This document shows positions 101 to 18,563 of a stretch of 22,583 nt of DNA, one piece after another. How positions within the stretch are numbered: position 1 is the first letter of the stretch; each line of letters starts with the position of its first letter. Under the pieces are notes generated by a model. The model saw only the letters and a program-made list of their open reading frames with translations, was not told the origin of the DNA and did no database searches. This DNA comes from Planctomycetota bacterium. GTDB taxonomy: Bacteria > Planctomycetota > Phycisphaerae > Tepidisphaerales > Tepidisphaeraceae. The stretch spans positions 1 to 22,583 of the forward strand of contig JAEZED010000140.1 of the NCBI GenBank assembly GCA_023417885.1, written 5' to 3'. Both the position numbers and the translations under genes were made by a program.

Positions 101-2044
101 TCAGAAGGGGAGAGACTGGTCCATCCAGTCGTCGCTGCGGAGGACCTGCTTGCGGTGGAAGCGGGCGAGCTTCTCGGCGCGGGCCTGGGCGATGCCGATG
201 AGCCTTTCCGGGCCGATCGCGCGCCAGCGCTTGCGCAGCTTGTCGGCGTGGCGCTTCAGCAGATCGTCGTCGGCGCTGGCGAACATCTGCGCCACGCCCG
301 GATCTCCCTGGCGGGCGGCGCGACCGAAGAGCTGGCGATCCACCCGCCCGCTGCCGTGCGGCTCCGTCGCGATGACATGAAGCCCGCCGTTCTCGGCGAC
401 GCCGCGGCCGAGGTGGATGTCGGTGCCGCGCCCGGCCATGTTGGTGGCGACGGTGATCGCGCCCGGCTGCCCGGCTTCGGTGACGATCTGCGCCTCCTCC
501 CGGTCCTGCCGCGCGTTGAGGACGCGGTGCGGGAGGTTGCGCGCGGTGAGGCGGCGATCCACCTCCTCGCTCGACCAGACGCTGCGCGTGCCGATCAGCA
601 CGGGAACGCCCTTGCGGTGAAGTTCTTCGACGCGCTGGGCGACCGCCTCCCACTTCTCCTCGGCAGTCTCGAAGAAGCGCATCGGAAGCTGCTGCCGGAT
701 GCACGGCTTGTTCGTGGGAATGCGGACGACGGCGCGGTTGTAAATCTGCCACAACTCGCCGCGCGCCTCCCAGGCCGTACCCGTCATGCCCCCCATGATC
801 GGATACTGCCGGAAGAACCGCTGGAAGCTGAGGCGGGCGAGATTCTCCTTGTCGCTCGTGACCGCCAGCCCCTCCTTGATCTCCATCGCCTGGTGGAGGC
901 CGGAGCGCCAGGAGCGGTCGGGCATGGTGCGCCCGGTGAACTCGTCGATGATGACGATCTTCCCGTCCTCGCTGATCAGGTACTGCTCGTCCTTGTGGAA
1001 GCAGTTCTCCGCGACCAGCGCCTGCGTCACCAGTTCCTCCCGCCGGCGCCGCCCCGCCCAGAAGCCCTCGTCACGCTGCATCGACTCCGCCAGCTCGTGC
1101 AGCCGCGTCTTGCCGCGTCCCGTGAGATCGGCCTTCCGGTCGGTGCGATCGACGGTGTAGTCGCGACCCTCCTCCAGCCGCAGCGCCAAGTCGCGCGCCT
1201 CGCGGTAGAGCGGCTCGTTGGCGTTGCCGTCCGGCGAGTTGCTGATGATCAGCGGCGTGACCGCCTCGTCGATCAGCAGGGAGTCGGCCTCGTCCACGAT
1301 CGCCCGGAACAGGCCCGGCACGAGGCACGGCCGCGCCCCCTGCCCCGCCAGCATTGAGACGGCCGTCGAGGTGGAGCTGCGCCGGTCGCCGAGCTGGATC
1401 TGGTCGCGCAGAAAGTCGGCGACGAGCTCCTTGCTGGTGCTGTAGACCACGCCGCTGCGGTAGGCCTGGAAGCGCTCCTGCGGCGTCGTATCGTGGATCA
1501 CGTGCGCCACGCGCAGGCCGAGCATCTCGTAGAGCGGCCGGTTCCACTGCGCGTCGCGCGCCACGAGGTAGTCGTTGACCGTGATCACGTGCACCGGCCG
1601 GCCCGACCAACCCCAGATCGCCGCCGCGATGGCCGCGGTCAGCGTCTTGCCCTCGCCGGTGGCCATCTCGGAGATGTATCCGCGCGTCATGCCTGCGGCG
1701 CCCATGATCTGCACGTCGAAGGGGCGCTTCTCAAGCGTGCGGACCGCCGCCTCGCGCACGACGGCGAAGGCGCGCTCCAGGTCTCGCCCCTCCAGCTTGC
1801 CGAGCCGCGCCAGCGAGCGGAGGCGATTGACCTCCTCGCGGAACGCGCTGCTCCCCAGCTTCTTCACCTCCGGCTCGTGCTCCCCCACCGCGTCGGCAAA
1901 CGCGCGCAGCGATCGCAGCACGGGCGTCTTGTGGCGCACCCAGCCGACCAGCGCGTTGGCGGCCGTGTCCAGCCCCTTGACCTCAGGGGCCTTGACGCGG
2001 CGCGCGTCGAAGATGTGAAAGAGTTCGCCGGCGGCTGAGCTCAT
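101..2044 (-). CDS. SecA-like ATPase paralog, C-terminally minimal: nucleotide-binding domains 1 and 2 plus the preprotein cross-linking domain only, with no helical scaffold, wing, two-helix finger or C-terminal tail
   Basis: The 647-aa translation aligns by eye to the SecA N-terminal two-thirds: Walker A MATGEGKTLTAA, the VDEADSLLIDEAVTPLIIS (DEAD-like) motif, and TNMAGRGTDI with LHVIATEPHGSGRVDRQLFGRAARQGD of NBD2. The protein ends at ...ARFHRKQVLRSDDWMDQSLPF, which corresponds to the very start of the long HSD helix of E. coli SecA. There is a clean TGA stop at 101..103. GAGGG lies 8 nt upstream of the ATG, which is only 18 nt after the stop of the upstream gene. Confidence 0.85.
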   Translation of the reverse strand: MSSAAGELFHIFDARRVKAPEVKGLDTAANALVGWVRHKTPVLRSLRAFADAVGEHEPEVKKLGSSAFREEVNRLRSLARLGKLEGRDLERAFAVVREAAVRTLEKRPFDVQIMGAAGMTRGYISEMATGEGKTLTAAIAAAIWGWSGRPVHVITVNDYLVARDAQWNRPLYEMLGLRVAHVIHDTTPQERFQAYRSGVVYSTSKELVADFLRDQIQLGDRRSSTSTAVSMLAGQGARPCLVPGLFRAIVDEADSLLIDEAVTPLIISNSPDGNANEPLYREARDLALRLEEGRDYTVDRTDRKADLTGRGKTRLHELAESMQRDEGFWAGRRRREELVTQALVAENCFHKDEQYLISEDGKIVIIDEFTGRTMPDRSWRSGLHQAMEIKEGLAVTSDKENLARLSFQRFFRQYPIMGGMTGTAWEARGELWQIYNRAVVRIPTNKPCIRQQLPMRFFETAEEKWEAVAQRVEELHRKGVPVLIGTRSVWSSEEVDRRLTARNLPHRVLNARQDREEAQIVTEAGQPGAITVATNMAGRGTDIHLGRGVAENGGLHVIATEPHGSGRVDRQLFGRAARQGDPGVAQMFASADDDLLKRHADKLRKRWRAIGPERLIGIAQARAEKLARFHRKQVLRSDDWMDQSLPF

Positions 2045-2062
2045 GGAAAAACCCTCAACCCT

Positions 2063-4300
2063 CTACTGCTGCTGCTGCATGCCGCGCGTGGTGCGCTGCG
2101 TCTGGATGAGCTGGAGGAAGCCGCGCCACCACTGTCGCGCCAGCGGCTCGTCGTCCAGCTTCACGCGGACGTAGGCCCGCTGACCCGGCAGACACTCGCG
2201 TCCCCCGTCGGCGGCGACCGGGTTGTCCAGGATCACGCGCATCTCGAACTGGTCCAGCGCCGTCTTGTTCGGATCGCGCGGGTCGGGCGCCAGCGTTCCC
2301 CCGCCGGCGTACGTCAGCGACGGGTTGCGAACCTCGTTCTTGGCCGACTGGAGCAGCCGGATCTCATCGAGATTCAGCCCCTCCAGGTCGGTGGCGTAGC
2401 GGATCTCGTCGATCTCGCTGGCAAGCCGCACCTGGACCGTCCGGGTGGGGTCCGCCAGGATGCGTTGGAAGTCCTCCTGGCCGACGGTCACAAAGACCTC
2501 CAGCCGCTCGTCGTTCCGCACCTCGCCGATCGTCTGCCCGCGCTTCAGGTGACGCCCCAGCGCCTGGTCGATGTCGGGCGCGATAAGCTCGCCGGCGTTG
2601 GGCGCGACGACCGTCAGCTCCGCCACCTCGCGCTCCAGGACGGCCAGCGCCTCGTGCGCGGCCGTCACCTGCTGGCGGACGACGTCCGCCTCGGCGGCGC
2701 TGCTGTGCAGCTGGGCGGCGGCGAGCAGGATGCGGGCGCGGTTCAGCTCGATGCGCGCGACCTCCAGGCGCGTCGCCAGCGTCGGGTTCTCCAGGCGCAG
2801 CAGCACCTGCCCCGCCTCGACCTGCTCCCCGTCGCGGACGAGCACCTCCACGACCTGTCCGGGCGAGCGCACGACCGCGCGCCCGCGCTCCAGCGGCTCG
2901 CTGATCCCCTCGGCGCGCACGGCGCTGGGGAACGGGATGATCGCCAGCAGCACGACGGCGGCGCTCGCGACCGCCAGGGTGAAGCCCCAGGCGCGCGTGC
3001 GCTTGCGGTGCAGCTCCGGATCGGTGGTCAGGTACTTGAAGAGCTTGAAGAACGGAACGACGAAGAACGTCGTGATGGCCCCCGCGGCCAGGAAGAGCCC
3101 GACGATCTGGGCCCATTCCGGCAGCTGGTACATCACCATGATGATGATCGCAAAGCCGATGAAGATGCGGTAGATCGTGCTGGCGACGCTGTAGAAGACC
3201 AGCCACGCTTTCTGCCGCAGGGTCGGCGGGAGCGGCTGCGTCGTCTTCACGCGGAACACGTACCGCTTGATCAGCCCCAGCGTGTATTCGCGGCTCTTCT
3301 GCTGGAGGTTGGGGATCTCCAGCCAGTCGCTGAGCATGTAGTACCCGTCATACCGCAGCAGCGGGTTGGCGTTGAACAGGATGGTGCTGACCGAGGCGAT
3401 CAGGATCGTGTAGTAGGCGATCTGGTGAACCGGGTGGTTCTCGCCCGTCGCCGCCCACACGAAGACCGCGATGGCCGCCACGAACAGCTCGGCGATCATT
3501 CCGCCCGCCGCCACGAGGATGCGCTTCCACTTGCTGGGGAAGCCCCAGGCCGTGCTGGCGTCCACGTACGGGCAGGGCATCAGCACCAGGAACATGATGC
3601 CGACCTCGTGCACCTCCCCGCCGAACTTGCGGTTGAGGAAGGCGTGCCCCATCTCGTGCAGGAACTTGGTCACGAGGAAGGTCGCACCCAGCACCAGCCA
3701 CATCTCGATGCTGCCGCTGTTCAGGAAGTCGGTCGTCTGCGCGTAGAAGTCATCCAGCCGCGGCAGGATCACCGCCAGCGCCAGCAGCATGGTGGCGATC
3801 CACAGCATCCCGCCCCACTTCGTGATGAACGGCCCGACCAGCGGCATCCACCGCTTCAGGTAGTAGTCCGGATCCCAGAGCGGGATGCGCGGGAACAGGA
3901 TGTTCATCAGCCGGCCCTGGAACTTGCGCTGGCGCTGCTTCTTGTGGCGGCGCAGGAGCACCTGGGCGTCGGGGCTGATATTCGTCTCGATCAGGTTCGC
4001 AGCGTAAAGCTGCGTCAGGATCTGGATGATCTCCGGCTGCGTCGGCGCGTCGTCGGCAAGCTGCCCGCCCACCAGCTCCCACGCGTCGCCGACCGTCCGC
4101 GTCCCGTCGAGCAGGCCCACGAACCGGTAGGCGACGTCCGAGAGCCGGTGGAACTGGTTGCCCGCGGGATCGCGCACCACGTACCAGCGCTCACCGCGGT
4201 ACCACTGGCGTGAGATCTGTGCCGCGGCGCGCAGCCGAGGCTTGAGGTCCTTGACGCGGTACCAGCTCTCGCTGAAGGTTGGCCGGAGTTGGAGGGTCAT
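2063..4300 (-). CDS. Tripartite membrane protein: N-terminal PqqD-like (RRE-like) peptide-binding region, peptidase M50 (site-2 protease family) polytopic core, and C-terminal HlyD-type periplasmic adaptor domain
   Basis: 745-aa ORF. Residues ~30-108 (WYVVRDPAGNQFHRLSDVAYRFVGLLDGTRTVGDAWELV...EIIQILTQLYAANLIE) fit the PqqD/RRE pattern. About 8 predicted TM helices carry the zincin motif FLHEMGHAF and the second S2P motif NANPLLRYDGYY (NxxPxxxxDG). The C-terminal ~300 aa has a biotin-lipoyl-like hairpin (VVRSPGQVVEVLVRDGEQVEAGQVLLRLEN), a coiled coil and a beta-barrel typical of HlyD/MFP adaptors. Confidence 0.85.
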   Translation of the reverse strand: MTLQLRPTFSESWYRVKDLKPRLRAAAQISRQWYRGERWYVVRDPAGNQFHRLSDVAYRFVGLLDGTRTVGDAWELVGGQLADDAPTQPEIIQILTQLYAANLIETNISPDAQVLLRRHKKQRQRKFQGRLMNILFPRIPLWDPDYYLKRWMPLVGPFITKWGGMLWIATMLLALAVILPRLDDFYAQTTDFLNSGSIEMWLVLGATFLVTKFLHEMGHAFLNRKFGGEVHEVGIMFLVLMPCPYVDASTAWGFPSKWKRILVAAGGMIAELFVAAIAVFVWAATGENHPVHQIAYYTILIASVSTILFNANPLLRYDGYYMLSDWLEIPNLQQKSREYTLGLIKRYVFRVKTTQPLPPTLRQKAWLVFYSVASTIYRIFIGFAIIIMVMYQLPEWAQIVGLFLAAGAITTFFVVPFFKLFKYLTTDPELHRKRTRAWGFTLAVASAAVVLLAIIPFPSAVRAEGISEPLERGRAVVRSPGQVVEVLVRDGEQVEAGQVLLRLENPTLATRLEVARIELNRARILLAAAQLHSSAAEADVVRQQVTAAHEALAVLEREVAELTVVAPNAGELIAPDIDQALGRHLKRGQTIGEVRNDERLEVFVTVGQEDFQRILADPTRTVQVRLASEIDEIRYATDLEGLNLDEIRLLQSAKNEVRNPSLTYAGGGTLAPDPRDPNKTALDQFEMRVILDNPVAADGGRECLPGQRAYVRVKLDDEPLARQWWRGFLQLIQTQRTTRGMQQQQ

Positions 4301-4310
4301 TGGTAGAAAA

Positions 4311-4331
4311 GCGAGAAGCGAGAAGCGAGAA
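4311..4331 (-). repeat. Three perfect tandem copies of the heptamer GCGAGAA (plus strand), equal to UUCUCGC x3 on the minus-strand transcript; the array ends ~10 nt upstream of the start codon of the M50 fusion gene
   Basis: Direct reading gives aaaGCGAGAAGCGAGAAGCGAGAAacc. On the coding (minus) strand this is a pyrimidine-rich tract occupying the position where a Shine-Dalgarno sequence would normally sit. Confidence 0.9.
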
Positions 4332-4397
4332 ACCGGAGCGGGGCAGGAGGCGGAGTCGAGCAGGCGCGGAGCGCTGCATCGTCTTCTGGGTCCTGGC

Positions 4398-4415
4398 TTC
4401 CCGCTTCCCGCTCCT
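4398..4415 (-). repeat. Two tandem copies of GCGGGAA on the minus strand (TTCCCGC x2 on plus), immediately after the stop of the GAF-HlyD gene. They are complementary, allowing G-U wobbles, to the UUCUCGC array ~66 nt downstream in the same transcript
   Basis: Plus strand reads cttcccgcttcccgctcc. In RNA, 5'-GCGGGAAGCGGGAAGC pairs with 3'-CGCUCUUCGCUCUUCG as 16 bp including 2 G-U pairs. Confidence 0.8.
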
Positions 4416-4421
4416 TCTGAA

Positions 4422-6383
4422 CTAGATCCACAGCTTGAGGCGCACCCAGTCGGTCAGGCGGTGCGTCCACTGCCAGATGAGCGGGCGCTTGCCCACGTCG
4501 AGGCGCACCTCGCCGGTTCCGCCGGGACGCCAGAACTGGTCGGGCTCTCCGACAGGCGAGGCGTAGACGGTGAAGGCGTTGGTGCCCTGCGTCGCCTCCG
4601 CGGCCTCGATGATGCGATCGACCTTGATCGGCACCTTCAGGTCCGGCCGGGCGGCGGTGGCGAGCGTGCCGGTGCGACCTTCAGCGATGTCGTCGATATC
4701 GCGGTCGGCGACGGCGATCTCGATGCGCAGGTGGCTCGGATCGCCCACCAGAAGCAGCTCGTCGCCGAGCTGGACGCTGGTGTTCACCCGCTCGCGCAAG
4801 TCCGCGGCGCCGGGCACCTGGAGCACGACGCCGTTCATCGGCGCCTTGAGCGTGGCGCGGTCGATCTCGCGCTGGAGGTTGTCGATCTCGTGCTGGAGCG
4901 CCTTTGCCGACTCCTCCTCGGCGTCGGCCTCGGCGATGGCCGACGGGTTCTCACTGCGGCGCTGCCGGTAGGCGTAGGCGCGGGCCAGGGCCGACCGGCG
5001 CTCGCTCTGCTTCTGGCTCAGTTCCGACTCGAGCTGGCGGGTGTCGAGCTTCAGGAGCGGCTGGCCCGCGGTGACGGTGTCGCCGATGTCAACGAAGACC
5101 TGCTCGATGGTGCTGGCGAAGGGGGCGTCGACAATGCGGCGCTCCAGCGGGACGAAGCTGAAGGGGGCCGAGACGCGGTACATCGGCGAGTAGAGGCACA
5201 GGAAGAGCACCAGCGCGATGGCCGAGGCGATCAGCACCTTCGCCAGCGTGTGCTGGCGCAGGCCGAAGACCTTTTTCGTCGTGCGCTTCGTGCTCAGGCC
5301 CGCCTTGGTGATCAGGTATCGGTCGTTCTCGTACCGGTCGTAGAGCTGGGGCGCCAGCAGCTCGGCGGCGACGGCCAGGGCCGTCGATTCCTGAGGCGTG
5401 CTGGGCTTCTCCGGCGGGAACTCGAGCGTGAGAACGCCGACGATCTCGTCCTTGCGGCGCAGCGGGATGCTGGCGACGCGGTTGTTCCCCTCCATCTGCG
5501 AAAGGGTCATCGCCTCGCGGGTGACGTTGTCGGTGGAGGCGCCGGCCGGGTCGAACTGCGTGAACTCGTCCTGGTCGAGGCACTCCTCCATCACCTTGAC
5601 GATCTGGACGGAGAGCTCCTGCTTCTTGTCGAACTCTTCGGTGTGGCTGATCGCCTGGAGCTTGACGTGTCGGCCCCGTACCCAACCGATGGCGACGCGG
5701 GCGGCGCCGGCGCGCGTCGCCAGCTCGTTGCAGAGGCCGGCGGCCGAGGCGTGGAAGTTCTCGCCCGTGGCGACGGAGCTTGCGAATTGGAAGACATCCT
5801 GGTGGGTCTTGGCGACCTGCCGGGCCTGCTCGTTCTGCCGTTTCAGAAGGAAGAAGTCGAAGTACCCCGCGACGAGCTGCATCGTGTTGAGCCGCTGGAG
5901 GGCACGGCTCTGGTCCTTGCAGCGCGTTACGACCGCCGTCGCGGCGACGACGCGGTTCTCGTTGCGAAGCAGGGTAACGAGGCAGAACTGCGGATCGACG
6001 TCGTCGGTCCCCTCGCCGACGCGCAGGGCCCCGTCCTTGTCCTCGAGGATGCACTGGGTGACGATTTCCCGGAAGGCCATGATCGCCTGCCGGCGGATCG
6101 CCTCCTCGGAGTTGTCCGGACGCACGTGGGCGACGGTGCGCAGCTCCGGCTTGCCGTCACCGGTCTGCCCCTCGAGGAGAAAGGCGGCCGCCTCGGTGCC
6201 TGCGACGACGATCGCCTGCGTGGTGATCAGGTCGTGCATGAACTCGGGCAGGTTGCCGTCGTTGGCGACCAGCCGCTGGACGAGCCGGGCCCGCGCGATG
6301 CGGTTCTCCTGCTTTTTCTGTTCTTCCTGCTGCCGCTGTTGCTCCTCCGGCTGGGGGGCGTACGGCTGGGCGACGGATGCCAT
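4422..6383 (-). CDS. HlyD-family adaptor with N-terminal tandem GAF-like cytoplasmic sensor domains (GAF-GAF-TM-HlyD)
   Basis: 653-aa ORF. The N-terminal ~380 aa form two ~150-aa alpha/beta blocks with a GAF-like pattern, which is an inference. A single TM follows (VLIASAIALVLFLCLYSPM). After it come a biotin-lipoyl-like motif (IEQVFVDIGDTVTAGQPLLKLD), a long coiled coil and a beta-barrel/MP domain (LKAPMNGVVLQVPG...). GAGG lies 9 nt upstream of the ATG. Confidence 0.8.
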   Translation of the reverse strand: MASVAQPYAPQPEEQQRQQEEQKKQENRIARARLVQRLVANDGNLPEFMHDLITTQAIVVAGTEAAAFLLEGQTGDGKPELRTVAHVRPDNSEEAIRRQAIMAFREIVTQCILEDKDGALRVGEGTDDVDPQFCLVTLLRNENRVVAATAVVTRCKDQSRALQRLNTMQLVAGYFDFFLLKRQNEQARQVAKTHQDVFQFASSVATGENFHASAAGLCNELATRAGAARVAIGWVRGRHVKLQAISHTEEFDKKQELSVQIVKVMEECLDQDEFTQFDPAGASTDNVTREAMTLSQMEGNNRVASIPLRRKDEIVGVLTLEFPPEKPSTPQESTALAVAAELLAPQLYDRYENDRYLITKAGLSTKRTTKKVFGLRQHTLAKVLIASAIALVLFLCLYSPMYRVSAPFSFVPLERRIVDAPFASTIEQVFVDIGDTVTAGQPLLKLDTRQLESELSQKQSERRSALARAYAYRQRRSENPSAIAEADAEEESAKALQHEIDNLQREIDRATLKAPMNGVVLQVPGAADLRERVNTSVQLGDELLLVGDPSHLRIEIAVADRDIDDIAEGRTGTLATAARPDLKVPIKVDRIIEAAEATQGTNAFTVYASPVGEPDQFWRPGGTGEVRLDVGKRPLIWQWTHRLTDWVRLKLWI

Positions 6384-6647
6384 AGGAGGGCCTCACACTG
6401 CGAGTGACATCGATTCGGCGCCCCTTTCAGGGGACGGGAACCAGATGATGGAACGGACGCTCGTCGCGAATGGGACGAATCGGGGCAGGCGGAGGTTCAT
6501 CTCCTGCCAAACCCCACCTTGCCTTCTTGAACCTGCTGGCCGGCTTGCCGGGCGGCGCCCCGGCCCCTGCTTCAACGCTAAGTCTAGCAACCTCCCCGCT
6601 CTTTCTGCCCGCGGAAACGCCAAATGGTCGCGGCGCACGCCGTCCGA

Positions 6648-7544
6648 TTAAGCCCCGTCCTGCCCGGGAAGGCGCACTTCGACCCGCAGGCCTGCCGGAC
6701 GACCCTCCGGATTGGACAGCTCCGCCCGGAACGGCAGGCGGGAGGTCGTGCCCGAGGGGTTGCCCACCGGGTTGATGAAGACGATTGTCGCGTCGCGCCA
6801 CTGGTCCTCCCCCTCGTAGCGCACCTGGATCGTGTCGCCGAGCTTCAACGCCATCACCTCGCGGGCCGGCACCGTCGGTATCTCTACGTAAAGCGGGTCG
6901 ATCTTCACGACACGCATGGCGGGCGTCTGGGGGCCAAAGACCTCACCCACGGTCGCCTCGATTTGCTGGACCACCCCGGTCTCGGGGCTGCGCAGGGTCT
7001 TTTGCTCGACGATGTACTGCTGCTCCTCCGCCCGGTGCGTTGCAACCTGCCCCAGCCGCTGCTCCTCGAGGATCCGCGTGTCCGCCGCCTTCACCTCGAG
7101 TTGGGCGCGCTCCGCCTCGAGCGGGGAGAGCGCAGGCCCGGCCTCCTCGGCGGCCTTGAGCTCGACACGCGCCAGGTCCGCCTGCGTGCGGGCAAGATCG
7201 ACGCGATCCCCGACGTTGGCCTCCAGCTGAAGGGCCTGGAGCCGGGCGATGTCGGCCCGGATGTCCTGCACCATCAGCACCTGCCCGGCTTCCACCTGGT
7301 CCCCCTCCTTCACGTTCACTTCCAGGATCTGCCCCAGGTTCGGGAAGGCCAGATCCATCTCGCGGCTGGGGATGGTGTTCCCCTCGAACAACGCCGCCGC
7401 CTCCTGCGACGGGCGATATTCCTGGGTGCTGGCGCGATCCTGCGCCACGAGCGCCCCGGCGGTGAGGAGGATCATCGGCACGGCCAGGAGCCCCGGTGGG
7501 CGGGCGGGGGGCGCTCGGGGCCGGTCTTGGGTCGATAGTGTCAT
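6648..7544 (-). CDS. HlyD/membrane-fusion-protein family periplasmic adaptor subunit; first gene of the operon
   Basis: 298-aa ORF with N-terminal signal/TM (LLAVPMILLTAGALVA), a lipoyl-like hairpin (GQILEVNVKEGDQVEAGQVLMVQD), a coiled coil, a beta-barrel (LRSPETGVVQQIEATVGEVF) and a C-terminal MP domain. Confidence 0.8.
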   Translation of the reverse strand: MTLSTQDRPRAPPARPPGLLAVPMILLTAGALVAQDRASTQEYRPSQEAAALFEGNTIPSREMDLAFPNLGQILEVNVKEGDQVEAGQVLMVQDIRADIARLQALQLEANVGDRVDLARTQADLARVELKAAEEAGPALSPLEAERAQLEVKAADTRILEEQRLGQVATHRAEEQQYIVEQKTLRSPETGVVQQIEATVGEVFGPQTPAMRVVKIDPLYVEIPTVPAREVMALKLGDTIQVRYEGEDQWRDATIVFINPVGNPSGTTSRLPFRAELSNPEGRPAGLRVEVRLPGQDGA

Positions 7545-8067: not shown

Positions 8068-8451
8068 TCAGGCGTATCCCAGTTCCTCGAGGTCGTCCTC
8101 GTCGAGGCCGAAATGGTGGCCCAGCTCGTGGAGGAGGGTGATCCGCACCTGTTCCACGAGGTCCTCCCTGTCCTCGCTGGCGTCCTCGATGTCCTCCCTG
8201 AAGAGCGTGATCACGTCCGGGAGGCGGGCGTGATCCTCGATATGCCGGTCGGTCAGAGGAACGCCTTCGTAGAGGCCCAGGAGCAGCTCATCGTCCGCCA
8301 TCCCCAGCTCCCGGAGCTTGCGGCGGGAGGGGCGCGGCTCGATCCGGATCGGCACTTCCGCCTCGATCGTGGCGCGCCATCGCTCCGGCAGGCGAGAAAT
8401 TGCCTGGGCAACAAGGTCCGAGAACTCGACATCGGTCACGTCAAACGGCAT
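8068..8451 (-). CDS. Zincin_1-like (DUF1025) mini metallopeptidase family protein
   Basis: C-terminal TLLHELGHHFGLDEDDLEELGYA matches the HExxH-containing signature of small ~120-aa Zincin_1 proteins. The start is taken at the internal ATG (MPFDVTDVEF...), because the upstream part of the track ORF is R/P-rich with poor codon usage. Confidence 0.6.
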   Translation of the reverse strand: MPFDVTDVEFSDLVAQAISRLPERWRATIEAEVPIRIEPRPSRRKLRELGMADDELLLGLYEGVPLTDRHIEDHARLPDVITLFREDIEDASEDREDLVEQVRITLLHELGHHFGLDEDDLEELGYA

Positions 8452-8552
8452 GATGCACCGCACATCGTAGTTCGAAGACCCCACCGGCCGCGCCCCACGC
8501 GACGGCCGCGACGCCCCGGAACGGATTCCCGGGCAGAAACGAGGCCGGCCCC

Positions 8553-9566
8553 ATGCCAAAGCCGCTTGCACTTTCAGGGATGATGTTTCTCGTGCTGGGT
8601 CTGCTCAGCGGATGCTCCATCCCCAGCTTTCTCATCACGCCCGTCTCCAGCAGCCCCGAGCTGAAGGAGACGGTCGTCGCCGACGGCACGCGCAAGCACA
8701 AGATCGCCATCATCCCCGTCGAGGGGATGCTCATGAACACCCGCATGGGCTCGGGCGGAATTCTCGGCGCCGAGGAAAACAAGGTCAGCCTCTTCAAGCA
8801 GCAACTCGACGCCGCGGCCGCGGATGATCGCGTCGAAGCGGTCATCCTCCGCATCAACAGCCCGGGCGGCACCGTCGCGGCAAGCGACCTGATGTACGAG
8901 CTGGTGCGCGACTTCAAGCAGAAGACGGGCAAGCCCGTCGTTGCCACCTGCCAGGACGTCTGCGCCAGCGGCGGCTACTACATCGCCAGCGCCGCCGACG
9001 AGATCCATGTCCTTCCCACGAGCGTGGTCGGGAGCATCGGGGTGATCTTCGAGACATTCGACATCTCCCCCCTTCTCGACAAGATCGGGGTCCGGATCAC
9101 GCCGCTCCAGAGCGGGCGGTACAAGGACTTGGGCAGCCCGTTCAACGGCCTGTCGGACGACGAGCGGGAGATCATGCAGGGGATGGTGGACGAGTTCTAC
9201 GCCCGTTTTGTGGGAGTGGTCCGTGACTCGCGCCAGGTGCGCGACGAGGAGATCGCCTTCGACGGGCGGGTCTTTACCGGACAGCAGGCCTACGAGCAGA
9301 ACCTCGTGGACGCCGTCTGCCAGCTTCCCGAAACGATCGCCCGCGTGAAGGGGATGATCGGGGAGCGGGATGCCCGGGTGGTGATGTATCGCCGGCCGTA
9401 TGGATACACCGGCAGCATTTACGCCAGAAGCGGCGACCTGTCGCCGCGCGCGTCCGAGTCAGCGGCTGGCGCGGATGACCCTTCAGCATGGGTATCGCGC
9501 CTGCCGATGGTAAATCAGGTGAGCCAGGCCCTGGAGCCGGGCTTTTACTACCTGTGGATGCCGTAG
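8553..9566 (+). CDS. sppA: Signal peptide peptidase SppA (36K type), predicted lipoprotein
   Basis: Lipobox LLSGC. ClpP/crotonase-fold motifs of SppA are present: IAIIPVEGML, RINSPGGTVAAS, the catalytic Ser context CASGGYYIASAADEI, and a Lys in PLQSGRYKDLGSP. ACGAGG lies 9 nt upstream of the ATG. Confidence 0.85.
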   Translation: MPKPLALSGMMFLVLGLLSGCSIPSFLITPVSSSPELKETVVADGTRKHKIAIIPVEGMLMNTRMGSGGILGAEENKVSLFKQQLDAAAADDRVEAVILRINSPGGTVAASDLMYELVRDFKQKTGKPVVATCQDVCASGGYYIASAADEIHVLPTSVVGSIGVIFETFDISPLLDKIGVRITPLQSGRYKDLGSPFNGLSDDEREIMQGMVDEFYARFVGVVRDSRQVRDEEIAFDGRVFTGQQAYEQNLVDAVCQLPETIARVKGMIGERDARVVMYRRPYGYTGSIYARSGDLSPRASESAAGADDPSAWVSRLPMVNQVSQALEPGFYYLWMP

Positions 9567-13958: not shown

Positions 13959-16900
13959 CTACCGCCGACGACGCATGCACAGCAGACCCGCGAGCGGCGC
14001 CAGAAGCAGCGATCCCGGCTCCGGCACCGCCGACACGCTCAGGCGATACACCTCGTTGCCCATGTCGTCGAACGCGATCCCGTAGCTGTAGATCGCGGCG
14101 TCCGGCAGGCCGAGCACCATCACGTTATCGAACGCCCCGCCGATGCCGTCGGGCTGATCCGTGCGGATCAGGTCGAAGACGTCGCCCGCCGTCGGGAGGA
14201 ACGTGAACTCAGCGACCAGCATCCCCCCGCCGATTGCTGCGGCATGGGCGTCGATCGCGCTGTACAGCCCGGGTTGCGGGTTTCCGTCCGTGCGATCCGG
14301 GCCGGCGATCTCGAAGATCAGCTCCCCGCCGGCGCCGATCACGAGGCTTGCCTGCGTGATCGCGAGGGCGTTGCGCAGCTCGAGGCGGCCGCTCGCCAGC
14401 GGCGCGTCGAAGTGCGGCGCGATCGCGATGTCTCCTGTGGTGGTGAGCACACTTTCCGTCAACTCAACCGCAGCGATCGCCTCGCCCGCCGGATCGCCGG
14501 TGCCGTTCCAGCCGATGAGCGCCGTTCCGCCGACCGAGATGACGGACTGCTCCGCACGAACGAGGCCTTGGGCGCGGCTCCCGCCGCTGGAGAGCTCGCC
14601 CACGCGTAAGCCGTCGCTGACAAGGAAGGCATCGCGCAAGGTGAGGCTGCCGCTGGCCTGGCCGGCGACGGAGGAACGGCCCACGTTCACGGCGCCGGCG
14701 AAGGTGCTGAAGCCATCGTGGAGCGTGACCTCCCCCACCGCCTCGCCACCCGACGATTGGCCGACGCTGAGCCCGGTGTAGCCGTTGATGTCGCCGACGA
14801 CGCGAAGCTCGCCCTGCGCATCGCCGGCGCCTGTCGTGACGCCGACCGTGATGCCGGACAGGCCATTGCCACTGATCCCGCCGGAAGTCACCTCGAGCGC
14901 GCCTTGGGCCAGACCTGTCGCCTGCGGAAACGCGCTGGCGATCCGGATCGAGGAGAACCCGGTGATGCCGGCGCCGACCTCCACGCTACCAAGCGCCTGG
15001 CCGTTTGTGCTCCCACTGGATACCGTTCCGAGCAGTCCGATGCCGAGGCCGGGCCAGGTGCTGTTCGGCGTGGGCATCGCCGCCGTCAGCGCCCCCTGCA
15101 CCTCGACACGACCATCGACCGAGCCGGTCCCGACGAGCATCTCGCCCACCCGCAGGCCAACGACACTGCCGGCGCCGTCCACGGTGATCGAGTTGGCGGC
15201 AAGCCGACCGACGGCGGTTCCGTTATCCGAGAAGCCAACGTCGATGAGCGACGCCGTCACGTCCGCCTGCGTCAGGAACTGGCCAACTGCGCTGCCACCC
15301 GCGCTGTAGCCGACGCGGATGTTGCTGCCCGTCACGGTTCCACTCCCGGCGGTGAAGGAGCCCGTCGCCCCGCCGGCCGTGGAGAAGCCGATGTTGTGCG
15401 CGCCCGTGTGGCTGATATTGACGCTCCCGTTGACGATCACGGACCCGCTGGCGCCACCCGTCGACACGGCATAGCCGACGGTAAGGGGGCCATTCAGCAG
15501 GTCGAGCGAACCGTTCTCAAGCTCCACGCTGCCCGAGGCACTGCCCGCGGCGCTGCTGAAACCGACGCTTAACGACTGGTAACCGGTGAGGTCGCCCACC
15601 TGGATCCGGAGATCTCCATTCGTCGACGCGCCGCTCGTGGCGTAGCCGACCAGCGCGGATCCGGAGGTGCCGGGCGTCGCCGCGATGTCGCCGAAGCCGC
15701 TGATGAGCGTTCCCTGCGCGAAGCCCGAGTCCGCGTTGGCCGCGAAGCCGACCCGCAGGTTGGAGAATCCGATGATCCCTTCGGCGACGGTGAGAAGGCC
15801 CTCGGCGTCGCCGGAGGTGATCCCCTCCGACAGGCCGTTCATCGCGCCGACCTGGAGATAGGTGGAGGGCCCGGCGGGTGTCAGGTTGCGAACGGTGCCC
15901 GGAATGATCGCGTAACCGCTGGCTGAGCCGGCGCCGGCTTCGAGAACGCCCACGAACGTGTAGAGCCAGGGCGCTGCATCGCCGCCCGTGAGGGAACCGG
16001 CCAGGAACGTCCCGTCCGCGTTCCCACCCATGTAGGCGGTGCCGACGTAGAAGCCATCGAGGCCGGTGTAGGCATTGAGCGTCTCGTAACTGCCCGATGC
16101 GACGCCACCATTGAGCGCGCGCCCGACATACGCCCGGCTGAGCGCAACGTTCAGGCCCGGGCCGTCGGCGTTGACGGCTCCGCCGGCCACCCCGCCGGTC
16201 GAGTACCCGACGCGCACCTGGCCGCCATCGCCATAGTGGAGAGAGCCGCCTGCATTGATGTTGCCGGCAGCGACGCTCGTTTGATCCACCATGCCGACGG
16301 TGAGGCCCGACCCGGTGAGGGTGAGGTCACCGGCGACGTCCAGGCTTCCCTGCGCCGACGTCGTGCCGATGGCACTGCCGACCGTGAGGGAGCCGGCGGA
16401 GAGCGACCCGGTGGAGACGGTGAAGCTCCCGTCCGCGAAGGCACCCTGGCCCGGATTGTCCGGCGCCAGCGCTATGCCGATCGACAGGCCGCTCGTGAAG
16501 CTGGCGTTCCCGCCGTTGATTAGCACTGATCCCGTCGCCTGCGACGCGCCGTCGCGCGCAACGCCGACAGACGAGGTTCCGGCGTTCACCTCAAGATCTC
16601 CACCCGTGATCTGGAGCGAACCGTGGGTGCTGCCGCCCAGCGCGGAATAGCCGGCGACCAGCGTGTTGTTGGTGAAGACATCAAGGTTGTTCACCTGCAC
16701 GTGCCCCGTGGCGCCGGGCGGTTGGCTCCCATCCACGATCGCCACGCCCAAGTGGAGGAAGCCCGTCTGGATCGGCCCGCCGGTGTAGAGCGGACTGGTC
16801 GGATCGGCGATTGCCGTACCGCCGTTGTCGATGAAGACCGGGAAGTAGGGATAGGGCCCGCTCCCCGCCCAGTTGGCCGGGTCGAACCAGTCGCCGACGC

Positions 16901-17012
16901 CCGGATTGGTCCAGGTGTCGGCGTAGGCCGTGGTGCTGCCAAGAGACACCGCGGCAACCGCCGCAACGAGTGCACGCGACGAAATCTTCATTGTCATCTT
17001 CTTGCTTGTCAC
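13959..17012 (-). CDS. Large secreted Gly/Ser/Thr-rich beta-helical repeat protein with a C-terminal PEP-CTERM sorting signal (exosortase substrate)
   Basis: Signal peptide MKISSRALVAAVAAVSLGSTTAYA. About 900 aa of degenerate ~25-30-aa repeats (LxVGYS/VGFS...GxASGS). The C-terminus VPEPGSLLLAPLAGLLCMRRRR is a PEP motif followed by a TM helix and an Arg cluster. AAGGGGG lies 8 nt upstream of the first ATG. Confidence 0.8.
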   Translation of the reverse strand: MTSKKMTMKISSRALVAAVAAVSLGSTTAYADTWTNPGVGDWFDPANWAGSGPYPYFPVFIDNGGTAIADPTSPLYTGGPIQTGFLHLGVAIVDGSQPPGATGHVQVNNLDVFTNNTLVAGYSALGGSTHGSLQITGGDLEVNAGTSSVGVARDGASQATGSVLINGGNASFTSGLSIGIALAPDNPGQGAFADGSFTVSTGSLSAGSLTVGSAIGTTSAQGSLDVAGDLTLTGSGLTVGMVDQTSVAAGNINAGGSLHYGDGGQVRVGYSTGGVAGGAVNADGPGLNVALSRAYVGRALNGGVASGSYETLNAYTGLDGFYVGTAYMGGNADGTFLAGSLTGGDAAPWLYTFVGVLEAGAGSASGYAIIPGTVRNLTPAGPSTYLQVGAMNGLSEGITSGDAEGLLTVAEGIIGFSNLRVGFAANADSGFAQGTLISGFGDIAATPGTSGSALVGYATSGASTNGDLRIQVGDLTGYQSLSVGFSSAAGSASGSVELENGSLDLLNGPLTVGYAVSTGGASGSVIVNGSVNISHTGAHNIGFSTAGGATGSFTAGSGTVTGSNIRVGYSAGGSAVGQFLTQADVTASLIDVGFSDNGTAVGRLAANSITVDGAGSVVGLRVGEMLVGTGSVDGRVEVQGALTAAMPTPNSTWPGLGIGLLGTVSSGSTNGQALGSVEVGAGITGFSSIRIASAFPQATGLAQGALEVTSGGISGNGLSGITVGVTTGAGDAQGELRVVGDINGYTGLSVGQSSGGEAVGEVTLHDGFSTFAGAVNVGRSSVAGQASGSLTLRDAFLVSDGLRVGELSSGGSRAQGLVRAEQSVISVGGTALIGWNGTGDPAGEAIAAVELTESVLTTTGDIAIAPHFDAPLASGRLELRNALAITQASLVIGAGGELIFEIAGPDRTDGNPQPGLYSAIDAHAAAIGGGMLVAEFTFLPTAGDVFDLIRTDQPDGIGGAFDNVMVLGLPDAAIYSYGIAFDDMGNEVYRLSVSAVPEPGSLLLAPLAGLLCMRRRR

Positions 17013-17176: not shown

Positions 17177-17581
17177 GTGATGACCGGCGACGATCCTTTC
17201 GCTCCACTCTTCGCATCCGATCTCGCCCAGCAGGTGCGGGAGACGTTCGAGGAGATGATGGAGTTTGGCGCCAGCGTGACGGCGGCGACGCAGGAGACGG
17301 TTCATCGCTTCGAGGGGACGCTCAACCACGAACAGGAAGGGCCGGTGGTGATCCTCGCGCTGGCGGCGCTCCAGGTGAAGCACCGTGAGATCCACGCCTC
17401 GATCCGCGATGCGGCGCTGGAGCTGCTGCGATCGGGCGAGGCCGACAAGCTGGTCGCCGCCGAGCCGACGGCGCGGCGACAGGTTCGCCCGCTCCTCGCC
17501 GATCTGGAGGCAATTCTCGAAGCGCTGGAGGACGAGGAAGAGGAGGACGACGAGGACCTCGACGATGAAGACAGCCAGTGA
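17177..17581 (+). CDS. Hypothetical small acidic protein (poly-Glu/Asp C-terminal tail), possible first gene of the NfeD-flotillin operon
   Basis: 134 aa with genome-typical codon usage, ending ...LEDEEEEDDEDLDDEDSQ. Track ORF 17385..18563 overlaps it in another frame; that overlap is judged spurious. Confidence 0.5.
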   Translation: MMTGDDPFAPLFASDLAQQVRETFEEMMEFGASVTAATQETVHRFEGTLNHEQEGPVVILALAALQVKHREIHASIRDAALELLRSGEADKLVAAEPTARRQVRPLLADLEAILEALEDEEEEDDEDLDDEDSQ

Positions 17582-17696
17582 CTGGCCGGGCCGGTCGCCC
17601 ATCCAGCCCCCCTGCGGCTGTTCTCCCATCCCGAACCTCTATCCCCGCCGGCCCGGCCCGCGGGCGGCGCCGGGGGCTGAATTTCGCGCCTCCTCC

Positions 17697-18563
17697 ATGC
17701 AAGGCGTCCCGGTATCCGGTAGCATCGTGCGCGCGATGGACGCGCAGTGGCTGTTGGCATGGTGGAACGTGATCTACGTCCTGCCCTTCGGGCTGGCGCT
17801 GGTCTACCTGTTCGCCTATGCCGCCAGCGGGTGGACGTTCGGCGAGATGGGTGCCGACGTCGATGCCGACGCTGATGCCGGCGTTCACGTCGGTGCCGAT
17901 GTCGAGGCGGAGTTAGAATCCGAGGTGGCCGACGCCGGGGATGCGGTCGCGGGCGATGCCTCGGATCATGGCCTGCACACGCCGGGGACGGACGTCGATG
18001 CCGACTCCGATCCGACCGCGACGAAGGGCGTGCTGGAGTCGCTCGCCTGGCTCGGCGTCGGGCGCGTGCCGCTGTCGATCCTGCTGATGGTGCTCCTGCT
18101 GACATTCGGCGCGATCGGCTTCGTGGTAAACCAGCTTGCCCGGGAGTTGATGCCGGAGCACCTGGTCTGGCTGGTCTCCTTCCCCCTGGCCCTGGGGGGC
18201 TCCTTCGCCCTGACGTCCGTGATCGCGCGGAGCCTCTCGCGGTGGATGCCGATGACCGAAACCTCCGCCCGCCGCCGTCGCGAGCTGGTGGGGCTGCGGG
18301 CGACGAGCATCTTCCGGGTGGACGAGGTCCAGGGCGTCGCGATGGTGCGTGACTTTGGCGGGGATCGTTACCAGGTCGCCTGCCGTACCCTTCCCGGCCG
18401 TCCGGCGATCGACGGCGGAACAGAGGTCATTCTGGTGGGGTACGAATCGGAACGTGGCTTCTTCCGCGTGGTGCCGAGCGGCCTGGAGGAAGCGGCGGGC
18501 CTGCCGGGCGGCGACGACGCCACGGGCGGCGCGAGCGGCCGGGCATTGGGCGAGATGGCATGA
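17697..18563 (+). CDS. NfeD/YqiJ-like membrane protein (DUF1449-type, with C-terminal OB-fold)
   Basis: N-terminal TM (WLLAWWNVIYVLPFGLALVYLFAYAA), an acidic DADADAG linker, two further TMs, and a C-terminal NfeD-like beta domain (LRATSIFRVDEVQGVAMVRDFGGDRYQVACRTL...VILVGYESERGFFRVVP). It sits immediately upstream of the flotillin gene, as in yqiJ-yqiK. The start could be ATG 17697 or ATG 17736. Confidence 0.75.
   Translation: MQGVPVSGSIVRAMDAQWLLAWWNVIYVLPFGLALVYLFAYAASGWTFGEMGADVDADADAGVHVGADVEAELESEVADAGDAVAGDASDHGLHTPGTDVDADSDPTATKGVLESLAWLGVGRVPLSILLMVLLLTFGAIGFVVNQLARELMPEHLVWLVSFPLALGGSFALTSVIARSLSRWMPMTETSARRRRELVGLRATSIFRVDEVQGVAMVRDFGGDRYQVACRTLPGRPAIDGGTEVILVGYESERGFFRVVPSGLEEAAGLPGGDDATGGASGRALGEMA

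Follow-up and report, generated by a model that had tools for sequence, protein, structure and literature searches.

The closest described counterpart of the locus studied here is a four-gene set reported by Kamneva, Poudel & Ward in 2015 (PMC4452313), consisting of genes for Peptidase_M50-HlyD, HlyD, GAF-HlyD and SecA_DEAD proteins. Its biological role was described as "completely unknown," the M50 part was suggested to act as a pore, and the phyla carrying it include, besides Planctomycetes and Proteobacteria, also Verrucomicrobia, Nitrospirae and Chlorobi; a PqqD/RRE domain goes unmentioned in that paper (0 occurrences), and in the passages searched no substrate is named and giant neighbors with LEPR-XLL starts do not appear. 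Fusions that join a RiPP recognition element (RRE; RiPP, a peptide made by the ribosome and modified after translation) with a site-2 protease (S2P) are known RiPP leader peptidases, and one of them, MpaP, guided the discovery of daptides (PMC10028931). M50 proteases also function in the epipeptide and pearlin pathways (PMC10885120). Here we analyzed a stretch of 22,583 nucleotides (contig JAEZED010000140.1, positions 1 to 22,583, assembly GCA_023417885.1; hereafter the window) from a planctomycete of the family Tepidisphaeraceae. It encodes a 745-amino-acid (aa) protein that joins an RRE, an M50/S2P protease and a HlyD-type membrane-fusion domain within a module of the 2015 kind, and we found related modules on alphaproteobacterial plasmids to lie next to genes for giant proteins, several of which begin with a LEPR-XLL motif.

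The fusion of an RRE with an M50 protease is already known and is not new here. The domain call itself is an ordinary one, as RRE-S2P fusions are published and annotation pipelines already label the family: the Prokaryotic Genome Annotation Pipeline (PGAP) names proteobacterial homologs "PqqD family protein" or "PqqD family peptide modification chaperone," and a precomputed PF05402 match is attached to several close homologs. What we add is an unpublished and testable link between the module and the LEPR-XLL giant proteins.

The described relatives each share a part of the architecture. In MpaP, too, an RRE at the N terminus precedes an M50 domain, and the logic is presumed to be the same, the RRE presenting the leader to the membrane protease (PMC10028931), but MpaP has no C-terminal HlyD domain. 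Its model NF041824 (daptide_HExxH) is collinear with residues 22-415 of the 745-aa protein (E = 6e-46) at 157.3 bits against an equivalog cutoff of 300, and by these profile scores the protein is placed as a homolog of the MpaP family but not as a member. The MpaA/B/C/D/M-type neighbors of daptide loci are absent from the window, where the gene is instead accompanied by those for a SecA-like ATPase and HlyD proteins, and the candidate substrates are large proteins as opposed to the ~40-aa peptides of the daptide system. The EpeP/YydH-LiaK epipeptide proteases, for which a pairing of cleavage with export has also been proposed (PMC10885120), show homology in the M50 core (NF058609, residues 192-338, E = 2.8e-11, 43.5 bits against a cutoff of 225) but have neither an RRE nor a HlyD domain. 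PqqD and the lasso B1 proteins TfuB1 and TbiB1 are stand-alone RREs, whereas the RRE here is joined to a membrane protease and preceded by an extra motif at residues 1-17; unlike PqqD and lasso-peptide systems, the window contains no radical-SAM or lasso machinery.

An RRE Joined to a Protease and a Membrane-Fusion Domain

A sequence-only reading of the window had proposed a PqqD/RRE-like peptide-recognition module at the N terminus of the protein. The peptide on which it was based is present as quoted, on the minus strand, with 4213..3977 corresponding to residues 30-108, and the proposal is borne out by the Pfam profile, by a family profile compared with the Protein Data Bank (PDB) and by a winged-helix model from AlphaFold2 (AF2). 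Pfam PqqD (PF05402, gathering cutoff 23.4 bits) matched residues 1-125 above the cutoff with 25.0 bits and E = 2.5e-5, covering residues 40-104 and all 67 model positions; the score was 24.8 bits for residues 1-130 and 21.5 bits, slightly under the cutoff, for the whole protein. As these scores are borderline, we built an alignment of 71 diverse family N termini, 40-84% identical to the query. When scored individually, 62 of the 71 matched PqqD (best E = 1.4e-9), and the profile of the alignment matched two experimentally solved structures of PqqD, 5sxy (E = 3.6e-4) and 3g2b (E = 6.8e-4), over essentially their full length and the lasso RRE TfuB1 weakly (E = 0.68). Residues 1-125 searched as a single sequence against PDB sequences gave nothing significant, the best hit being the winged-helix region of GdmN (E = 0.18). 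The AF2 model of residues 1-130 (pLDDT 88, pTM 0.78) shows a three-stranded sheet with three helices in a winged-helix fold, the elements being β1 (28-34), β2 (37-44), β3 (49-53), α1 (55-61), α2 (70-84) and α3 (88-100), and the fold matches are RiPP proteins almost throughout. The RRE starts near residue 18 and not at residue 30, as first proposed, and a further conserved motif precedes it. On this evidence we regard the PqqD/RRE assignment as close to certain.

Among 120 full-length homologs from a whole-protein search, mean identity was 87% in the RRE, 61% in the M50 domain and 38% in the HlyD part. The alignment and the AF2 model place near-invariant residues in β3 (R52) and at or in α3 (A85, P86, Q88, L95 and L98), the elements that form the leader-binding groove in solved RREs. 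That the RRE is the most conserved segment, with near-invariant residues along the groove, argues from sequence for a conserved ligand. The motif ahead of the RRE is strongly conserved at residues 3-16, with W13 being the sole invariant column among the 71 diverse N termini. Residues 1-17 are confidently predicted beside the RRE domain with a short helix and have no counterpart in PqqD; they could cover the domain as a lid, form a helix at the membrane interface or make contact with a partner.

The other two parts of the fusion named by the sequence-only reading, an M50 protease and a HlyD adaptor, were likewise found. The protein matches Pfam Peptidase_M50 (PF02163; 29.7 bits, cutoff 27.2) and carries the HExxH and NxxPxxxxDG motifs of an M50/S2P enzyme, with H215, E216, H219, N310, P313, D318 and G319 invariant in 89 aligned sequences; in S2P enzymes the third of the zinc ligands comes from NxxPxxxxDG. 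Hydropathy and AF2 helices suggest ~7 transmembrane helices. The C-terminal part matches Pfam HlyD_3 (26.6 bits, cutoff 22.2), Biotin_lipoyl_2 and HlyD_D23, and Foldseek aligned it with MexA, AcrA and MacA at E ~1e-12 and TMt ~0.7, as for a true membrane-fusion (HlyD/MexA-like) domain. AF2 modeled the protein at full length with pLDDT 89 and pTM 0.71, and a homolog search returned more than 4,500 related proteins. Given the ~7 transmembrane helices and the positively charged linker, the RRE and the basic linker are predicted to be cytoplasmic and the HlyD part periplasmic; on this topology, HExxH and NPxxxxDG would each lie where their helix ends toward the cytoplasm, which is also the RRE's side of the membrane.

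A Four-Gene Module with a SecA-Like ATPase

Four genes run in one direction on the minus strand from 101 to 7544, the RRE-M50-HlyD gene being the third, and the window locus has the composition of the 2015 module: M50-HlyD, HlyD, GAF-HlyD and truncated SecA_DEAD genes are co-located. Across ~80 related loci, all from metagenome-assembled genomes of Tepidisphaerales/Phycisphaerae (Planctomycetota), the order of the four genes is constant and the flanking genes are variable. The 745-aa protein is the central inner-membrane subunit of this conserved HlyD / GAF-HlyD / RRE-M50-HlyD / SecA-like ATPase module, and it is best described as a protein of the RRE-S2P kind with a membrane-fusion domain, embedded in a SecA-paralog secretion module.

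The SecA-like protein matches Pfam SecA_DEAD (2.4e-87), SecA_PP_bind (6.8e-26) and P-loop_SecA (9e-53) and is 62-76% identical across related loci; at 561 bits it falls far under the NCBIfam SecA equivalog cutoff of 814. Its Walker A (GEGKT) and DEAD-box (DEAD) motifs are intact, and the window ends 100 bp past the stop codon of its gene. The GAF-HlyD protein has a cytoplasmic N-terminal region of ~380 aa with the GAF domain inside; the presence of a GAF domain suggests that the secretion module is under small-molecule or signal control. Neither the window nor the module contains a gene for an ATP-binding cassette (ABC) transporter or an OEP, and the module thereby differs from classical type I secretion systems (T1SS), in which an ABC transporter energizes the inner membrane side and a TolC-like outer-membrane factor is added. 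TolC genes are present in some proteobacterial loci, where a gene for a small DUF3467 protein is often added together with the TolC gene.

Giant LEPR-XLL Genes next to the Module

As we examined 10 alphaproteobacterial plasmid loci with full-length homologs of the 745-aa protein (31-36% identity), we found in all 10 that a very large open reading frame (ORF) ends just upstream of the module. The annotated lengths of the giant products range from 4,033 to ~12,900 aa. PGAP names the upstream gene a LEPR-XLL domain-containing protein on the plasmids of Pontibrevibacter (31.8 kb), Pseudosulfitobacter (38.7 kb) and Thalassospira (12.1 kb), the latter two being counted here on the PGAP name, and it names the product LamG-like in Methylosinus (26.5 kb), Ig-like in Mesorhizobium (31.5 kb) and a calcium-binding protein in Alisedimentitalea (24.4 kb). 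The plasmids of Ensifer, Rhizobium WSM1274, Rhodobacteraceae M382 and Pseudohalocynthiibacter carry an unannotated upstream open frame of 1,579-2,414 aa that extends past the flank examined. The LEPR-XLL motif is modeled by NCBIfam NF012209 (LEPR-8K; 24 positions, ..LEPRxLLSA.., cutoff 17 bits), and three giant N termini, ..RRAAWRLMLDPMEPRVLLSADP, ..RRAKIIFDTLEPRVLLNADV and ..RAVHFEALEPRLLLSADF, pass this cutoff with 28.7 (Pontibrevibacter), 29.1 (Methylosinus) and 34.1 bits (Mesorhizobium). Counting starts either shown or named, LEPR-XLL is found in 5 of the 10 giant proteins. An obvious hydrophobic Sec-type signal segment was seen in none of the three N termini read.

We also identified a reduced form of the locus. 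On p2 of Azospirillum brasilense Sp7 and on the Escherichia coli IncF plasmid NZ_CP081687 (our loci L100 and L087, respectively), TolC, two HlyD and M50-HlyD genes come after a gene whose giant product is of the DUF4347 or Ig-like kind, and SecA-like, GAF and DUF3467 genes are absent from the reduced loci examined. Plasmid records with this variant number 18 for E. coli and 8 for Citrobacter. The giant proteins start with MALEPRFMFDAAG and ..RFALESRQLFDGAA (the second also given as ..ALESRQLFDGAA). Pfam PqqD gave no match to the M50-HlyD N termini from Azospirillum and E. coli; by hhalign, the Azospirillum one is a diverged RRE homolog (probability 80%, E = 1.4e-5), and for E. coli the comparison gave no more than a weak indication (E = 0.027). 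In the reduced subtype the RRE-M50-HlyD protein is the main shared component with a recognizable cytoplasmic domain. Because the LEPR-type start persists without the SecA-like, GAF and DUF3467 genes, we infer that this protein is the most economical candidate for the LEPR receptor.

Within the window's own clade, we scanned ~1.4 Mb of Tepidisphaerales loci for the pattern LExRxLL[SATNG][AGVSI]. It occurs four times in N-terminal heads, defined as the first 110 residues of ORFs of at least 150 aa, and is absent from the 502,015 residues of ORF bodies (Fisher P = 0.013). Three genes with the motif or a close variant lie directly downstream of the SecA-like gene (loci L009, L013 and L067), and RTX-type GGxGxD repeats then follow in most of them.

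Proposed Role of the RRE and Alternatives

The reading to which we give somewhat less than an even chance is that the RRE captures the LEPR-XLL leader, the M50 domain clips it, and the SecA-like motor and the HlyD duct export the giant protein. The N-terminal leader (~24 aa), with which large or giant proteins of the surface or RTX type begin, would be bound by β-strand addition to β3/α3 of the RRE and then cut off by the M50 domain; the SecA-like ATPase would clamp the unfolded chain and push it, and the three HlyD-type proteins together with a TolC-like channel would form the duct to the outside. RRE domains have, to our knowledge, been described almost exclusively in RiPP biosynthesis. A possible wider conclusion, which we advance only tentatively, is that the RRE acts as the signal receptor of a distinct, ABC-transporter-free trans-envelope secretion system that works by LEPR-XLL capture, S2P removal, a SecA-like drive and a HlyD/TolC duct. 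Peptidase-containing ABC transporters working with HlyD, and RTX-adhesin T1SS, offer an analogous coupling of leader recognition, cleavage and export through a membrane-fusion protein/TolC duct, and giant repeat-protein cargo is shared with RTX-adhesin T1SS. Unlike the peptidase-containing ABC exporters, the module here has no ABC transporter or C39 peptidase, its energy presumably coming from the SecA-like ATPase, and the proposed signal is an N-terminal LEPR-XLL leader as against the double-glycine leader or C-terminal RTX signal of ABC exporters and T1SS.

Several observations weigh against this proposal. The two Tepidisphaerales starts that NF012209 matched, out of four scanned, scored 16.5 and 13.3 bits and thus stay under its cutoff, and an adjacent candidate is present in only a few of ~65 Tepidisphaerales loci. 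None of the window's six reading frames contains a LEPR-type ORF, and none was found in the 10 kb past the SecA-like gene on the source contig (ena:ERZ27269073:k141_384873, 50.8 kb); a gene matching NF012209 thus stands beside the module in relatives and not at the window locus, whose substrate would therefore be encoded in trans, elsewhere in the genome. The link from the RRE to the LEPR-XLL leader is drawn from gene neighborhood only, and the leader could instead be read by the preprotein cross-linking domain of the SecA-like protein, by the DUF3467 protein or by that portion of the middle HlyD protein which lies in the cytoplasm. The classical export route of RTX-type proteins uses C-terminal signals and an ABC-type T1SS. 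The predicted topology and active-site position, finally, come from hydropathy and AF2 secondary structure and not from coordinates.

The sequence-only reading had pictured leader recognition, cleavage and export in one polypeptide acting on a small RiPP-type peptide of the NHLP, Nif11 or double-glycine kind. The RRE, M50 and HlyD domains make the first part of this picture reasonable. The second would make the protein a RiPP maturation and export enzyme, whose RRE binds the leader of a small peptide (bacteriocin-like, NHLP, Nif11 or daptide-like) that the M50 domain cuts and the HlyD part exports; this agrees with the RiPP leader peptidases of the RRE-S2P type such as MpaP (PMC10028931), with the M50 proteases of the epipeptide and pearlin pathways (PMC10885120), with the long collinear NF041824 alignment and with fold matches that are nearly all RiPP proteins. 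Yet the NF041824 score is far under its cutoff, and the all-against-all clustering of 13,365 ORFs (at least 30 aa) from 81 loci gave no conserved short ORF or RiPP-modifying enzyme around the module: only shadow ORFs within the module genes and a Zincin_1 gene (36 loci) recur. Neither did the window show a short precursor gene with modifying enzymes beside the RRE gene, as a RiPP gene cluster would, and the plasmid loci gave the same negative result. The gene is constantly accompanied by those for a SecA-like ATPase of protein translocation and two more HlyD proteins, and in Proteobacteria by a very large neighboring gene. RiPP leader/RRE pairs diverge fast, in contrast to the extremely conserved RRE seen here. 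A small-peptide substrate is thus unsupported, and we consider the RiPP explanation improbable.

An RRE that serves as a docking or regulatory module, gripping a peptide of another subunit and so assembling or gating the machine, would account for the same conservation by coevolution with the equally well-conserved SecA-like protein. Candidate partners are the tail of the SecA-like ATPase, the cytoplasmic domain of the GAF-HlyD protein, a DUF3467-type chaperone or the protein's own residues 3-16. PqqD contacts its enzyme partner PqqE besides PqqA, and the confident placement of residues 1-17 next to the domain fits such a role as well. However, in the loci examined the reduced subtype is without SecA-like, GAF and DUF3467 genes and still retains an RRE-like N terminus and a giant partner with a LEPR start, and the conserved residues fall in the usual leader groove; we judge docking unlikely, though it is a contender to be taken seriously. 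Signaling cascades are the best-known setting of M50 enzymes, and with a GAF sensor protein encoded in the module one might also imagine that the M50 domain cuts a regulator anchored in the membrane by regulated intramembrane proteolysis, like the classical S2P enzymes RseP and SpoIVFB; the RRE would then be the sensor of a peptide signal, with secretion being secondary. But no sigma/anti-sigma gene lies beside the module in any locus, and a trans-envelope duct is what the covalently fused membrane-fusion domain, the other two HlyD proteins and a TolC gene as frequent neighbor point to, which makes this explanation very improbable.

Should the RRE indeed read the LEPR-XLL leader and hand the giant protein to the export machinery, a function would be found both for the module left unexplained in 2015 and for the LEPR-XLL tag, and an RRE would be at work in protein secretion rather than in peptide natural-product synthesis. 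Proteins of 4,000-12,900 aa with no obvious Sec-type signal would have an exit route, one driven by a SecA paralog and gated by an intramembrane protease. In the literature library searched, we found no follow-up to the 2015 report and no functional study on LEPR-XLL, DUF3467 or DUF4347. The data gathered here place the module in Planctomycetota and Proteobacteria, and versions of the system are present in tractable hosts, namely Methylobacterium extorquens AM1 (META1p2399-2402), A. brasilense Sp7 and E. coli with IncF plasmids.

Other Genes around the Module

Table 1. Positions of the module genes, of the segments of the 745-aa protein and of neighboring genes in the window
Feature	Position	Strand	Basis and remarks
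HlyD-type adaptor, 298 aa, first gene of the module	6648..7544	(-)	Pfam HlyD_D23 4e-14, HlyD_3 1e-13; conserved in 66 loci
GAF-HlyD protein, 653 aa: cytoplasmic GAF domain, transmembrane segment, HlyD adaptor	4422..6383	(-)	Pfam GAF, HlyD_3, HlyD_D23; conserved in 82 loci
RRE-M50-HlyD fusion protein, 745 aa	2063..4300	(-)	ORF list and translation; stop codon included
Conserved N-terminal motif LRPTFSESWYRV, residues 1-17, short helix 9-16, W13 invariant	4250..4300	(-)	Alignments and AF2 secondary structure
PqqD/RRE winged-helix domain, residues 18-108, order β1-β2-β3-α1-α2-α3	3977..4249	(-)	
Basic linker helix (RRHKKQRQRKFQGR...), residues 109-160, up to the first transmembrane helix	3821..3976	(-)	AF2 helices 112-135, 144-159
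Polytopic M50/site-2 protease domain, residues 161-460, ~7 transmembrane helices	2921..3820	(-)	Pfam, NF041824, hydropathy, AF2
HExxH zinc-binding/catalytic motif, H215 E216 M G H219	3644..3658	(-)	Invariant, 89 aligned sequences
NxxPxxxxDG motif, N310...P313...D318 G319	3344..3373	(-)	Invariant, 89 aligned sequences
Membrane-fusion (HlyD/MexA-like) domain, predicted periplasmic, residues 461-745, α-hairpin 506-560	2066..2920	(-)	Pfam, Foldseek, AF2
Truncated SecA-like ATPase, 647 aa, downstream gene: nucleotide-binding domain (NBD) 1, preprotein cross-linking domain, NBD2	101..2044	(-)	Pfam, NCBIfam
Zincin_1 (PF06262) metallopeptidase-like gene, directly upstream of the module	8068-8571	(-)	
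S49/NfeD-type peptidase	8553-9566	(+)	
YqiJ-like membrane protein	17385-18563	(+)	
SPFH/Band-7 protein, 645 aa	18617-20554	(+)	

The Zincin_1 gene has a homolog in the same upstream place in 36 of the ~80 related loci and may reflect local synteny or be an accessory gene. We considered as a substrate a 1017-aa ORF without Pfam match (13959-17012, minus strand; ~1,010-1,017 aa) and rejected it on account of its classical Sec signal peptide; it appears unrelated to the module. The S49/NfeD, YqiJ-like and SPFH/Band-7 genes are concerned with membrane-protein quality control, without an evident link to the module. One Tepidisphaeraceae lineage has two small genes (102 and 109 aa; locus L003, 12170-12821, plus strand) inserted between the M50-HlyD and SecA-like genes, with no Pfam or NCBIfam match; the DUF3467 protein (~100 aa) of many proteobacterial modules may be a chaperone analogous to them. 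The PGAP name of the SecA-like module protein is "prepilin peptidase" in two plasmid records (L085, 11204-13120; L091, 11059-13083) and "DEAD/DEAH box helicase" in others. The former name looks like a misannotation in L085, where Pfam gives SecA_DEAD, PP_bind and P-loop_SecA.

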